A stretch of 8,226 nt of DNA from Naegleria gruberi (lineage: Eukaryota). A program made the position numbers and the translations under genes. The notes under the pieces were generated by a model. That model worked only from the letters and a program-made list of their open reading frames with translations, did not search any database and was not told the origin of the DNA. Positions within the stretch are counted from its first letter, which is position 1; every line of letters starts with the position of its first letter. The stretch is taken from assembly GCA_000004985.1 (NCBI GenBank), contig GG739079.1; one strand, written 5' to 3'. Below are positions 1,527-8,196 of this stretch, in pieces.

Positions 1527-1532
1527 TTTATT
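1527..1532 (-). promoter_or_regulatory. Canonical polyadenylation signal AATAAA, 16-21 nt downstream of the stop codon at 1548..1550
   Basis: Minus-strand reads taa agtgtccaaagatgc AATAAA acaag. Position relative to the stop is typical of a eukaryotic poly(A) signal. Confidence 0.4.
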
Positions 1533-1547
1533 GCATCTTTGGACACT

Positions 1548-1702
1548 TTAAAAAGAAACAAGATCAGTAAATTCCACAACTTTTGGATCTAAATTGTAAG
1601 CTACTCTCACAATTTCTGGATTATTTCTCAGAGTTTCACTTGCAAATTCTAATGCCATGGGCGTTGTCTTGATGCATTGAAGAACAATTTCCTCATCATT
1701 TC
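1548..1702 (-). CDS. C-terminal fragment (50 aa + stop) of an unidentified protein, truncated upstream by the assembly gap: ...NDEEIVLQCIKTTPMALEFASETLRNNPEIVRVAYNLDPKVVEFTDLVSF*
   Basis: The minus-strand frame that is open for all 51 codons from the gap edge to TAA (1548..1550) is not the frame reported in the track. The track frame terminates after 18 codons at TAG 1649..1651. The longer frame has protein-like composition and is followed by AATAAA. It may or may not belong to the same gene as the fragment on the other side of the gap. Confidence 0.45.
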
Positions 1703-4700
1703 NNNNNNNNNNNNNNNNNNNNNNNNNNNNNNNNNNNNNNNNNNNNNNNNNNNNNNNNNNNNNNNNNNNNNNNNNNNNNNNNNNNNNNNNNNNNNNNNNN
1801 NNNNNNNNNNNNNNNNNNNNNNNNNNNNNNNNNNNNNNNNNNNNNNNNNNNNNNNNNNNNNNNNNNNNNNNNNNNNNNNNNNNNNNNNNNNNNNNNNNNN
1901 NNNNNNNNNNNNNNNNNNNNNNNNNNNNNNNNNNNNNNNNNNNNNNNNNNNNNNNNNNNNNNNNNNNNNNNNNNNNNNNNNNNNNNNNNNNNNNNNNNNN
2001 NNNNNNNNNNNNNNNNNNNNNNNNNNNNNNNNNNNNNNNNNNNNNNNNNNNNNNNNNNNNNNNNNNNNNNNNNNNNNNNNNNNNNNNNNNNNNNNNNNNN
2101 NNNNNNNNNNNNNNNNNNNNNNNNNNNNNNNNNNNNNNNNNNNNNNNNNNNNNNNNNNNNNNNNNNNNNNNNNNNNNNNNNNNNNNNNNNNNNNNNNNNN
2201 NNNNNNNNNNNNNNNNNNNNNNNNNNNNNNNNNNNNNNNNNNNNNNNNNNNNNNNNNNNNNNNNNNNNNNNNNNNNNNNNNNNNNNNNNNNNNNNNNNNN
2301 NNNNNNNNNNNNNNNNNNNNNNNNNNNNNNNNNNNNNNNNNNNNNNNNNNNNNNNNNNNNNNNNNNNNNNNNNNNNNNNNNNNNNNNNNNNNNNNNNNNN
2401 NNNNNNNNNNNNNNNNNNNNNNNNNNNNNNNNNNNNNNNNNNNNNNNNNNNNNNNNNNNNNNNNNNNNNNNNNNNNNNNNNNNNNNNNNNNNNNNNNNNN
2501 NNNNNNNNNNNNNNNNNNNNNNNNNNNNNNNNNNNNNNNNNNNNNNNNNNNNNNNNNNNNNNNNNNNNNNNNNNNNNNNNNNNNNNNNNNNNNNNNNNNN
2601 NNNNNNNNNNNNNNNNNNNNNNNNNNNNNNNNNNNNNNNNNNNNNNNNNNNNNNNNNNNNNNNNNNNNNNNNNNNNNNNNNNNNNNNNNNNNNNNNNNNN
2701 NNNNNNNNNNNNNNNNNNNNNNNNNNNNNNNNNNNNNNNNNNNNNNNNNNNNNNNNNNNNNNNNNNNNNNNNNNNNNNNNNNNNNNNNNNNNNNNNNNNN
2801 NNNNNNNNNNNNNNNNNNNNNNNNNNNNNNNNNNNNNNNNNNNNNNNNNNNNNNNNNNNNNNNNNNNNNNNNNNNNNNNNNNNNNNNNNNNNNNNNNNNN
2901 NNNNNNNNNNNNNNNNNNNNNNNNNNNNNNNNNNNNNNNNNNNNNNNNNNNNNNNNNNNNNNNNNNNNNNNNNNNNNNNNNNNNNNNNNNNNNNNNNNNN
3001 NNNNNNNNNNNNNNNNNNNNNNNNNNNNNNNNNNNNNNNNNNNNNNNNNNNNNNNNNNNNNNNNNNNNNNNNNNNNNNNNNNNNNNNNNNNNNNNNNNNN
3101 NNNNNNNNNNNNNNNNNNNNNNNNNNNNNNNNNNNNNNNNNNNNNNNNNNNNNNNNNNNNNNNNNNNNNNNNNNNNNNNNNNNNNNNNNNNNNNNNNNNN
3201 NNNNNNNNNNNNNNNNNNNNNNNNNNNNNNNNNNNNNNNNNNNNNNNNNNNNNNNNNNNNNNNNNNNNNNNNNNNNNNNNNNNNNNNNNNNNNNNNNNNN
3301 NNNNNNNNNNNNNNNNNNNNNNNNNNNNNNNNNNNNNNNNNNNNNNNNNNNNNNNNNNNNNNNNNNNNNNNNNNNNNNNNNNNNNNNNNNNNNNNNNNNN
3401 NNNNNNNNNNNNNNNNNNNNNNNNNNNNNNNNNNNNNNNNNNNNNNNNNNNNNNNNNNNNNNNNNNNNNNNNNNNNNNNNNNNNNNNNNNNNNNNNNNNN
3501 NNNNNNNNNNNNNNNNNNNNNNNNNNNNNNNNNNNNNNNNNNNNNNNNNNNNNNNNNNNNNNNNNNNNNNNNNNNNNNNNNNNNNNNNNNNNNNNNNNNN
3601 NNNNNNNNNNNNNNNNNNNNNNNNNNNNNNNNNNNNNNNNNNNNNNNNNNNNNNNNNNNNNNNNNNNNNNNNNNNNNNNNNNNNNNNNNNNNNNNNNNNN
3701 NNNNNNNNNNNNNNNNNNNNNNNNNNNNNNNNNNNNNNNNNNNNNNNNNNNNNNNNNNNNNNNNNNNNNNNNNNNNNNNNNNNNNNNNNNNNNNNNNNNN
3801 NNNNNNNNNNNNNNNNNNNNNNNNNNNNNNNNNNNNNNNNNNNNNNNNNNNNNNNNNNNNNNNNNNNNNNNNNNNNNNNNNNNNNNNNNNNNNNNNNNNN
3901 NNNNNNNNNNNNNNNNNNNNNNNNNNNNNNNNNNNNNNNNNNNNNNNNNNNNNNNNNNNNNNNNNNNNNNNNNNNNNNNNNNNNNNNNNNNNNNNNNNNN
4001 NNNNNNNNNNNNNNNNNNNNNNNNNNNNNNNNNNNNNNNNNNNNNNNNNNNNNNNNNNNNNNNNNNNNNNNNNNNNNNNNNNNNNNNNNNNNNNNNNNNN
4101 NNNNNNNNNNNNNNNNNNNNNNNNNNNNNNNNNNNNNNNNNNNNNNNNNNNNNNNNNNNNNNNNNNNNNNNNNNNNNNNNNNNNNNNNNNNNNNNNNNNN
4201 NNNNNNNNNNNNNNNNNNNNNNNNNNNNNNNNNNNNNNNNNNNNNNNNNNNNNNNNNNNNNNNNNNNNNNNNNNNNNNNNNNNNNNNNNNNNNNNNNNNN
4301 NNNNNNNNNNNNNNNNNNNNNNNNNNNNNNNNNNNNNNNNNNNNNNNNNNNNNNNNNNNNNNNNNNNNNNNNNNNNNNNNNNNNNNNNNNNNNNNNNNNN
4401 NNNNNNNNNNNNNNNNNNNNNNNNNNNNNNNNNNNNNNNNNNNNNNNNNNNNNNNNNNNNNNNNNNNNNNNNNNNNNNNNNNNNNNNNNNNNNNNNNNNN
4501 NNNNNNNNNNNNNNNNNNNNNNNNNNNNNNNNNNNNNNNNNNNNNNNNNNNNNNNNNNNNNNNNNNNNNNNNNNNNNNNNNNNNNNNNNNNNNNNNNNNN
4601 NNNNNNNNNNNNNNNNNNNNNNNNNNNNNNNNNNNNNNNNNNNNNNNNNNNNNNNNNNNNNNNNNNNNNNNNNNNNNNNNNNNNNNNNNNNNNNNNNNNN

Positions 4701-5595
4701 NNNNNNNNNNNNNNNNNNNNNNNNNNNNNNNNNNNNNNNNNNNNNNNNNNNNNNNNNNNNNNNNNNNNNNNNNNNNNNNNNNNNNNNNNNNNNNNNNNNN
4801 NNNNNNNNNNNNNNNNNNNNNNNNNNNNNNNNNNNNNNNNNNNNNNNNNNNNNNNNNNNNNNNNNNNNNNNNNNNNNNNNNNNNNNNNNNNNNNNNNNNN
4901 NNNNNNNNNNNNNNNNNNNNNNNNNNNNNNNNNNNNNNNNNNNNNNNNNNNNNNNNNNNNNNNNNNNNNNNNNNNNNNNNNNNNNNNNNNNNNNNNNNNN
5001 NNNNNNNNNNNNNNNNNNNNNNNNNNNNNNNNNNNNNNNNNNNNNNNNNNNNNNNNNNNNNNNNNNNNNNNNNNNNNNNNNNNNNNNNNNNNNNNNNNNN
5101 NNNNNNNNNNNNNNNNNNNNNNNNNNNNNNNNNNNNNNNNNNNNNNNNNNNNNNNNNNNNNNNNNNNNNNNNNNNNNNNNNNNNNNNNNNNNNNNNNNNN
5201 NNNNNNNNNNNNNNNNNNNNNNNNNNNNNNNNNNNNNNNNNNNNNNNNNNNNNNNNNNNNNNNNNNNNNNNNNNNNNNNNNNNNNNNNNNNNNNNNNNNN
5301 NNNNNNNNNNNNNNNNNNNNNNNNNNNNNNNNNNNNNNNNNNNNNNNNNNNNNNNNNNNNNNNNNNNNNNNNNNNNNNNNNNNNNNNNNNNNNNNNNNNN
5401 NNNNNNNNNNNNNNNNNNNNNNNNNNNNNNNNNNNNNNNNNNNNNNNNNNNNNNNNNNNNNNNNNNNNNNNNNNNNNNNNNNNNNNNNNNNNNNNNNNNN
5501 NNNNNNNNNNNNNNNNNNNNNNNNNNNNNNNNNNNNNNNNNNNNNNNNNNNNNNNNNNNNNNNNNNNNNNNNNNNNNNNNNNNNNNNNNNNNNNN
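1703..5595. other. Assembly gap: 3,893 consecutive N; true length and content unknown
   Basis: Uninterrupted run of n from 1703 to 5595. All ORFs spanning it (1649..6670 -, 1677..5675 +) are artefacts of X translation. Confidence 0.99.
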
Positions 5596-6595
5596 TTCTT
5601 ACTCTATCTACTAATACCAATATAACTGAAAGCTTATCAAGTTCAATTAAAGTATTCATTGAATTAGGACCATAACCTTGCTGTTCTAATTGTTTACTAA
5701 TATTAGGAGTGTTATCTGTTAATTTCACTACATATACCTTCTTGGATCTATTTTTTAAATAGTTAATCAGAGAAGAAGACAACATATCAGCATGGTCTTT
5801 GCTTTTCAAACGAATTACACCCATAACTGGCTCTTCAGAAAGGTAAATATTTCTAATTATTTCAGCTGAAGTTGTCTTACTTTCATTGATTTTGTTAATT
5901 GCCTCCTCGTACTCTTTAACAACTGCATTGGACGCTTCTTTCATGGTATTAGTATTACCAATGATCTTGTCTTGTTTAAACTCAAGTTCTTCAATAGATC
6001 TATAACTGGGAGTTCCATAGCGTTCTGGAGAGGTTGTCCTAAGATGATTCCAGTCAACATTATTTTCTATTCTAAAGTCATAGTTGCCAAACAGGAGAAC
6101 ATTTGCAGTTGCAGTGACTAACAATATTCCTAAATAAAGTTTTTTTCCTTTTTGTAAAACTTTCTTCCTCTTCTCGTTGATTTGTTTTAAGAAATCATTG
6201 ATGGTACTGTTTTTAGCAATGCCCCAGTGTGCTTCATCATGAACCAAAAGGTGTAACTCATTTTCATTGTCAAATCTTTCAATGAATGAATTAGTTTTTT
6301 CTTTACCAACATTGTCGCTGTTAACAATAACACTAGTGAATGCTGATAGTCCAATGGCCTCTTTAAATAATTCAAAGTCGTCAGAGGTTTGGTTTCTTAG
6401 TGCAGTAAATGTTGGGCCTATTATACACAAGTTAATGGATTTGAATTTTGTTTCCTTATATCCAGCAAGAGAAGATTGCAACCATTTTTCTACAACTTTT
6501 AAAGCAATATTGTATTGTGAACGGTAGATTTTAAGACTTTGGAAGGACAACAATTCAGAGTTGTCTGGTGTAATTACTTCAGGTGCAACCAACAT
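5596..6595 (-). CDS. N-terminal 333 codons of an SF2 (DExH-type) helicase-like protein, 3' end lost in the gap; motif II DEAH and motif III TAT present, canonical Walker A not visible
   Basis: Track ORF frame is open from 6670 to the gap. First ATG at 6593..6595 (MLVAPEV...) follows an A-run (aaaaaaaATG). The track's own M is a TTG. LHLLVHDEAHWG (DEAH at 6227..6238) is followed 38 aa later by LGILLVTATA (TAT at 6107..6115), the classic motif II-III spacing. The distal part (PVMGVIRLKSKDHADMLSSSL...KVYVV...SVILVLVDRVR) resembles helicase domain 2 motifs IV/V. Where a P-loop would be expected, the sequence is IIGPTFTA (6401..6418) instead of GxGKT. No exact family can be assigned from sequence alone. 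Confidence 0.65.
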
Positions 6596-6783
6596 TTTTT
6601 TTAAATATTTTTTAACATTGACTTGTTTATTACAACAGATTTTTGTGTTTTTTTTGGACCAATCTCTCAAAACAGTACATTACGCAACACTTTTAACATT
6701 TTATTTCAGTTAGGATTTGATTATTTATGATTCTTATGGATTAGTTTGTTGGAGACAGGATATTTTTCCTGCTGGTCCAGTAA

Positions 6784-7091
6784 TACAATGGAAACAATTG
6801 TGATCAACCAATTTGTTACAAGAAGAATGCCACCGATGCTTGTAGCTATCATGGTAAATGTGTTTCGTATAATAATGGTGTTTGTAATGATGGTATGGAA
6901 ATAAATGTGAAAGTTTTGTTAATTGTTTTGGCAAGTTGAAGAATGATTCAATGGTTTGTTCAGGCAATGGTAATTGTTCTTCTCCAAACAATTGCACATG
7001 CTCGCAAGGTTTTCTTGGCTATGATTGTAGTATTCATACTTGTTCTGGACTTTCGTATAATAATTCTCAAGTATGCTTAGCAAAATCATAG
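6784..7091 (+). CDS. Cysteine-rich EGF-like (tenascin-type EGF) coding region in two frames; needs a short intron (6893..6963, 71 nt, or 6884..6963, 80 nt) or a +1 frameshift; no start codon identified (partial exon(s) or pseudogene)
   Basis: Frame A (6784..6892) reads YNGNNCDQPICYKKNATDACSYHGKCVSYNNGVCNDG, then a stop at 6937. Frame B (open 6891..7091, stop TAG 7089..7091) reads ...MVCSGNGNCSSPNNCTCSQGFLGYDCSIHTCSGLSYNNSQVCLAKS*. C-S-G-x-G-x-C-x5-C-x-C-x2-G-F-x-G-x-D-C-S is the tenascin/teneurin-type EGF consensus, and C-S-x-H-G-x-C is its first half. GTATGG at 6893 or GTAATG at 6884, joined to the acceptor ttgttCAG at 6961..6963, restores a single frame. Frame A has a TAA at 6781..6783, no ATG and no upstream YAG, so the 5' boundary is unresolved. 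Confidence 0.5.
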
Positions 7092-7485: not shown

Positions 7486-7824
7486 TCATAAATTAATGAC
7501 ATCTCTTTTTGGACAATCAGTGACCAACCATTGATAGTAGAATGCTTGTGGTGATAATGGCACATTACCTTCCTCTAATACAATGGCAAGCTTTGGCCTT
7601 TGAGAAATTAGTGTTTCTAATAGTTCAAGTTTAGGCTCAGTTTGTAGATTTAGATATTCAAGTTGCGGCCAGCAATTAATGTTTTCTAGTAAAAAATTAA
7701 AGAGACCTAAATGAGTGCTTTCAATAACTTTCAAGTTGGGAAATGATTCTGTGAGAATTGAATACATTCTTTTAGAATCTCTGTAATTGGATCCAATCAA
7801 ATTTCCCACCCAAATCCTTTCCAT
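7486..7824 (-). CDS. 112-aa ORF with RNI-like leucine-rich-repeat character (F-box/LRR-type C-terminal region?); may be the 3' exon of a longer gene
   Basis: ATG at 7822..7824, TGA at 7486..7488. The sequence ...FPNLKVIESTHLGLFNFLLENINCWPQLEYLNLQTEPKLELLETL... fits the LxxLxLxxCxxL pattern of RNI-like LRRs. 112 stop-free codons is unlikely by chance in this AT-rich window. Product assignment is pattern-based only. Confidence 0.5.
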   Translation of the reverse strand: MERIWVGNLIGSNYRDSKRMYSILTESFPNLKVIESTHLGLFNFLLENINCWPQLEYLNLQTEPKLELLETLISQRPKLAIVLEEGNVPLSPQAFYYQWLVTDCPKRDVINL

Positions 7825-8077
7825 TTGTCTTTTTCCAACAAATATTTAATTTGCCGATGAAAACAAACCTCAATGCATTCACTATTGACCATTCTTTGAT
7901 TATTACATTTCTGGAGTACTTTTTTGGATGTTCTTTCACATGGGTAAATATTGAATAATGACAGTCCATTGTCAACTTCGTTAATCACTTGATTAGTTCT
8001 TAATTCTAATTTTATTTAACAATATCACTAAGTTAGGATTTTAACTGATTAATATTTATCAATTTAAGATATTGAAT

Positions 8078-8196
8078 GGCTACGGCCATATCACGATGAA
8101 TGCACCTCATCCCGTCCGATTTGAGAAGTTAAGCATCGTCGAGCCACATCAGTACTGAGGTTGGAGACAACTTGGGAACCTGTGGTGCTGTAGTCT
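8078..8196 (+). rRNA. 5S ribosomal RNA gene (eukaryotic, RNA polymerase III transcribed), complete
   Basis: GGCTACGGCCATATCACGATGAATGCACCTCATCCCGTCCGATTTGAGAAGTTAAGCATCGTCGAGCC...AGTACTGAGGTTGGAGACAACTTGGGAACCTGTGGTGCTGTAGTC. Universally conserved 5S blocks are present: CCAUA, CCCGUCCGAU, AAGUUAAGC, AGUAC and GGGAA. The 5' GGCUACGGC pairs with the 3' GCUGUAGUC to form helix I. Length is ~119 nt. Confidence 0.9.

Follow-up and report, generated by a model that had tools for sequence, protein, structure and literature searches.

The 8,226-nucleotide stretch of Naegleria gruberi DNA analysed here (assembly GCA_000004985.1, contig GG739079.1; referred to below, at its full length, as the window) probably carries two genes on the same, minus, strand that are both cut by one scaffold gap. 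The visible part of the upstream gene encodes the start of a circularly permuted superfamily 2 (SF2) helicase of the GREB1 type, and the downstream gene ends in a DUF4116 repeat. The two flanks of the gap most likely hold unrelated genes, the start of a helicase-methyltransferase type protein and the end of a repeat protein, both of them ordinary.

The two flanks of the gap

All unknown bases in the window fall in a single run of 3,893 N (1703–5595), a length that is not a round number and leaves a remainder of 2 when divided by three. A six-frame list of open reading frames (ORFs) includes one of 1673 amino acids (aa) that spans this run (1649–6670, minus strand). This ORF is an artefact in which two unrelated frames are fused via X residues, and it stays open only because N translates as X. 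Its right part comprises 358 real codons (6670–5597), its middle some 1,298 X residues (1,297 all-N codons and one that lies across the gap edge), and its left part 17 sense codons (EMMRKLFFNASRQRPWH) followed by a stop. The TTG start at 6670 stems from the bacterial-code start rule applied by the ORF caller, and no ATG occurs before 6595. The single N run and this arithmetic bear out the initial annotation, which had ascribed the giant ORF solely to the unknown bases and had its left-hand frame dying after 18 codons, a count made up of 17 sense codons and the stop. The gap length, not being a round number, can reasonably be taken, most simply, as the scaffolder's size estimate, and frame relations between the flanks across the run are uninformative. 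A gene predictor or ORF caller that tolerates N would report a nonexistent 1,673-aa "helicase" at this locus; a better annotation would consist of two partial genes, a 5'-partial DUF4116 gene (1548–1702) and a 3'-partial circularly permuted SF2 helicase gene (5596–6595).

On the right flank, 333 codons run uninterrupted from the ATG at 6595 to the gap edge (5597–6595, minus strand). Pfam membership was judged by the curated gathering cut-offs, which are 26.2 bits for PF20692 and 24.9 bits for PF13475. The only Pfam family whose cut-off is passed by the right flank is cpSF2-GREB1 (PF20692), with 38 bits, E = 1e-9 and coverage of profile positions 3–268 of 716. An exhaustive HMMER search of 1.84 billion representatives returned 47 relatives at E ≤ 1e-3, 30 of them at E ≤ 1e-10, and the best homologues (E = 2e-51) are 38–39% identical. 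The alignment to these relatives is colinear, with neither breaks nor frameshifts, from about residue 20 right up to the gap edge, and the flank breaks off just short of a strongly conserved block, MGERIP.TC.YFDVRSRY...QDVGRCAGH. Within the visible part, helicase motif II is DEAH (residues 120–123; 6227–6238, minus strand), whose D and E are near-invariant in the family alignment, and motif III is TAT (residues 161–163; 6107–6115, minus strand), which reads SAT in most relatives.

The AlphaFold model of the right flank, built on a 52-sequence alignment, has a pLDDT of 86.4 and a pTM of 0.76. The top Foldseek matches of this model in the PDB are the SF2 helicases DHX36, MrfA, RecQL/RECQL5 and Brr2, with probabilities of 0.96–1.0. 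These canonical helicases have the DEAH motif in common with the window protein, but their TM-scores are just 0.28–0.43 and the window protein has no N-terminal motif I, as expected of a circular permutation. The 333 residues contain a single Cys and no GK[TS] motif; the latter fits a circularly permuted order, and the position of QxGKTG in 20 relatives falls inside the N run. Motifs II and III thus occur together with an SF2-type predicted fold, which places the protein among the SF2 helicases. When the right-flank sequence alone was searched against the PDB, no meaningful match emerged, and a viral scan found no relatives. Taken together, the Pfam match, the homologues and the modelled fold show that the right flank is real coding sequence, the start of a GREB1-type circularly permuted SF2 helicase. 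The initial annotation had called it a genuine helicase-like N-terminus, a description that the Pfam score, the 47 homologues and the fold uphold and sharpen.

Three minus-strand frames lead out of the gap on the left. The frame that starts at 1702, which is that of the giant ORF, closes after 17 codons and the frame at 1701 after one; the frame at 1700 stays open for 50 codons (1551–1700), preceded by a partial codon of 2 nucleotides (nt) at 1701–1702 and followed by a TAA stop at 1548–1550. At the composition of the window (32% GC), any one frame would stay open for 50 codons or more with a chance of about 0.015. The encoded 50-aa peptide (NDEEIVLQCIKTTPMALEFASETLRNNPEIVRVAYNLDPKVVEFTDLVSF) fits the DUF4116 model (PF13475) almost end to end, with 47.6 bits against the cut-off of 24.9, E = 1.2e-12 and profile positions 1–43 of 49, and comprises one complete repeat and a six-residue tail. 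This repeat is the only one visible outside the N run; a published model treats DUF4116 as an alpha-solenoid repeat (PMC8078820). The DUF4116 match is decisive and identifies 1551–1700 as the genuine coding frame on this side of the gap. The tail of the giant ORF (1649–1702, minus strand; EMMRKLFFNASRQRPWH plus stop) is out of frame with the repeat, matches nothing and is noncoding in that frame.

The preference of the initial annotation for this alternative frame as the better C-terminus is therefore confirmed by the DUF4116 match, and the 51 open codons that it counted correspond to 50 sense codons plus the TAA. The AATAAA that it cited as further support is indeed present 15 nt past the stop (1527–1532, minus strand) and is a possible poly(A) signal. 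Its value as support is discounted because the hexamer is common in AT-rich DNA and occurs seven times per strand in the 4,333 real bases of the window. The protein-database search that had been proposed, in which the 50-aa fragment was to be compared with the C-termini of helicase-family proteins, gave no match at all, and a local phmmer comparison of the fragment with the 47 helicase relatives was likewise negative.

Helicase relatives and the number of genes

Pfam scans were run on ten relatives and then on 52 sequences, consisting of the window fragment, the 47 homologues and four further cluster members. The cpSF2-GREB1 model is matched by 49 of the 52. A methyltransferase domain that binds S-adenosylmethionine (SAM) recurs after the helicase in many of the relatives, most often as Methyltransf_8, and neither a glycosyltransferase model nor DUF4116 matches any of the 52 sequences. 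A family profile built from 13 sequences matches human RRP8/nucleomethylin (PDB 2zfu, Methyltransf_8) with E = 1.2e-13 over its last 200 positions, which correspond to the C-terminal domain of the relatives; RRP8 itself has no helicase. The named family members come from Lithocolla globosa (EP00732_P001381), Cavostelium apophysatum, Cavenderia fasciculata (DFA_05436, XP_004361155.1) and the bdelloid rotifer Adineta ricciae (CAF1423178.1); the remaining members are metagenome and Logan contigs. Most of the Cavenderia, Lithocolla and Adineta type proteins are 24–39% identical to the window protein over the aligned part and have the same motif order. The window shows the first 333 residues only, with the P-loop and methyltransferase halves in the gap.

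Landmarks were counted past the residue aligned with the gap edge in the 21 relatives that continue for more than 250 aa after it. GRxAGH lies at +33 to +38 aa, the displaced Walker A motif QxGKTG at +95 to +126 aa (20 relatives), the SAM-binding DxGCG at +181 to +251 aa, and the C-terminus at +319 to +562 aa (median 386). The P-loop is thus downstream of motifs II–VI, which is the circular permutation, and the methyltransferase region sits in the last part of the protein in all 21. By homology, the gap would hold, at the corresponding offsets, a motif VI-like GRxAGH, the displaced Walker A Q(I)GKTG and a Rrp8/nucleomethylin-like SAM methyltransferase with DxGCG, and the upstream gene would reach its stop about 1.0–1.7 kb into the gap. 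The 3' two-fifths to one-half of the gene is lost in the gap: the P-loop with the remainder of the helicase and, probably, the Rrp8-like methyltransferase.

These lengths bear directly on the number of genes, a point that the initial annotation had left open between one gene of about 1,600 aa and two unrelated genes. In a single gene, some 1,347 residues would have to separate the gap edge from the stop at 1548, whereas the longest remainder among the relatives is 562 aa. Two genes are favoured because the full-length relatives end 319–562 aa past the gap edge and because DUF4116 is absent from all 52 sequences scanned. Relatives on longer contigs are encoded by stand-alone genes, and no gene next to them matches DUF4116. 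The gap of about 3.9 kb would accommodate the helicase-methyltransferase remainder, a spacer and a DUF4116 gene of 700–850 aa; the sole intergenic spacer that can be measured in the window is about 540 nt (1009–1547).

Several points weigh against this assignment of two genes and against the content predicted for the gap. The methyltransferase that the window gene probably encodes is predicted from its relatives and is not visible in the window. ENA, JGI metagenome, viral and exact-ORF searches recovered nothing that spans the gap, and the one public contig that is nearly identical, ENA ERZ929261 (99%), shares just 1–1293 with the window. Word-index protein searches returned no match for either flank, and the JGI metagenome scan found only two distant relatives (28–31% identity). 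Both the estimated size of the gap and the joining of the two flanks in the scaffold may be erroneous. With the nearest homologue just 38–39% identical, a lineage-specific C-terminal DUF4116 extension may exist, and the location of both flanks on the same strand is compatible with one gene.

Such a gene, of about 1,600–1,700 aa, would run from the circularly permuted SF2 helicase through the methyltransferase into a long DUF4116 solenoid that ends with the TAA at 1548–1550, and the frame difference between the flanks would stem solely from the inexact gap length. The polarity suits this arrangement: both flanks are coding, the right one holding an N-terminus and the left one a C-terminus, and the window shows neither a stop nor a start between them. 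Extra domains do occur in the family, yet the extensions seen are N-terminal; one member (P0122) has a 400-aa N-terminal extension and another (P0138) an N-terminal OTU protease domain. Given also the shorter remainders, the terminal position of the methyltransferase region and the lack of DUF4116 in the scanned relatives, a single gene is considered rather unlikely. If true, it would unite a competent circularly permuted SF2 ATPase, an Rrp8-like methyltransferase and a DUF4116 solenoid, an architecture seen in none of the 52 sequences, and would provide the first functional context for DUF4116.

It is very improbable that the flanks are not true neighbours (through a wrong join, or because far more than 3.9 kb lies within the gap) or that one of them is a dead gene fragment, in which case the inference about the gap would be invalid: signs of draft quality or gene decay elsewhere in the window, namely an EGF-like remnant in need of a 1-nt frame correction and overlapping out-of-frame ORFs at 7486–7975, together with the single visible DUF4116 repeat, speak for it, but both flanks are clean unbroken frames right up to the N run and score above the curated cut-offs, the right flank aligns without frameshifts, and the specific, non-round gap size suggests a paired-read estimate.

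Neighbouring features of the window

A homocysteine S-methyltransferase (HMT) gene, cut at the start of the window, occupies 1–1008 on the minus strand (Pfam E = 1e-39), and its best named relatives are from Naegleria fowleri (47%) and N. lovaniensis (46%), identities that would point to a heterolobosean other than these two species. The ENA contig ERZ929261 (k127_87960), which is of metagenomic origin, is about 99% identical to the HMT coding part and differs upstream of it, in the spacer, by indels of 72 and 26 nt, which suggests that this species or a sister species inhabits the environment sampled. At the HMT locus of N. fowleri the neighbours are a peptidase and an LSM gene, and on a JGI contig with a 53%-identical HMT an unrelated 429-aa gene lies upstream; neither locus has a DUF4116 or circularly permuted SF2 helicase gene nearby.

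Three further features lie to the right of the helicase start. A stand-alone 5S ribosomal RNA gene (8078–8196, plus strand; Rfam RF00001, 105 bits, full length) sits amid protein-coding genes, outside any ribosomal DNA unit. A Cys-rich, EGF-like coding remnant at about 6790–7091 on the plus strand has no clear start codon; two frames joined by a 1-nt shift near 6880 give a 100-aa piece that matches Pfam EGF_2 in two stretches (E = 1e-7), and the remnant could be a pseudogene or reflect a short intron or a sequencing error. Finally, a 112-aa ORF (7486–7824, minus strand), for which neither a Pfam match nor an exact record in public assemblies was found, overlaps a 67-aa ORF in another frame (7772–7975, minus strand). 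The interval 7486–7975 may represent a frameshifted or intron-containing gene.

Relation to GREB1 and proposed role

The helicase and glycosyltransferase domains of GREB1 were reportedly first described by Iyer et al. in 2013. GREB1-like proteins are reported to be widespread in eukaryotes, including Naegleria-like Heterolobosea, and the helicase of animal GREB1 has been described as catalytically inactive (PMC7968844). The likeness of the window protein to GREB1/GREB1L is confined to the circularly permuted SF2 helicase domain, PF20692. In GREB1 an N-terminal Zn-binding domain precedes the helicase, whereas the window protein starts directly with it, the helicase alignment setting in at about residue 20 after the ATG at 6595 and the 333 residues holding one Cys. 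GREB1 ends in a Fringe-like glycosyltransferase, and the relatives of the window protein end in a methyltransferase instead. In contrast to the inactive helicase of GREB1, DEAH is intact in the window and the QIGKTG P-loop is intact in the relatives. An assignment as a GREB1 orthologue was rejected on the grounds of the missing Zn-binding N-terminus, the intact DEAH and the methyltransferase of the relatives in place of a glycosyltransferase. Judging by its motifs, the family combines a circularly permuted SF2 ATPase that is apparently active with an Rrp8-like methyltransferase. Its architecture is a sister to that of GREB1, where a helicase of this type is inactive and is linked to a glycosyltransferase.

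The window would thus be a scaffold piece from an AT-rich, intron-poor eukaryote, in which the 3,893-N gap interrupts two separate minus-strand genes. The upstream gene would start at the ATG at 6595, its 333 visible residues being the N-terminal part of a circularly permuted SF2 helicase in which DEAH and TAT are intact; the downstream gene would lie mostly in the gap and close with the DUF4116 alpha-solenoid repeat (1551–1700) and the TAA at 1548–1550. The domain content suggests that the upstream protein may couple ATP-driven binding or remodelling of nucleic acid, probably RNA, to base methylation. Its likely mechanism would be that the fused methyltransferase acts on a substrate base which the helicase module has delivered or exposed.

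No functional study of the family that combines a circularly permuted SF2 helicase with an Rrp8-like methyltransferase was found in the literature. Its spread is patchy, covering Lithocolla (a nucleariid-related amoeba), Amoebozoa, a bdelloid rotifer and many metagenome contigs. The right-flank protein is best filed as a partial member of this group, which is already auto-named in UniRef, where Cavenderia DFA_05436 appears as 'GREB1-like circularly permuted SF2 helicase domain-containing protein'. The Naegleria gene thereby adds a member to a patchily distributed eukaryotic family of circularly permuted SF2 helicases with a methyltransferase.

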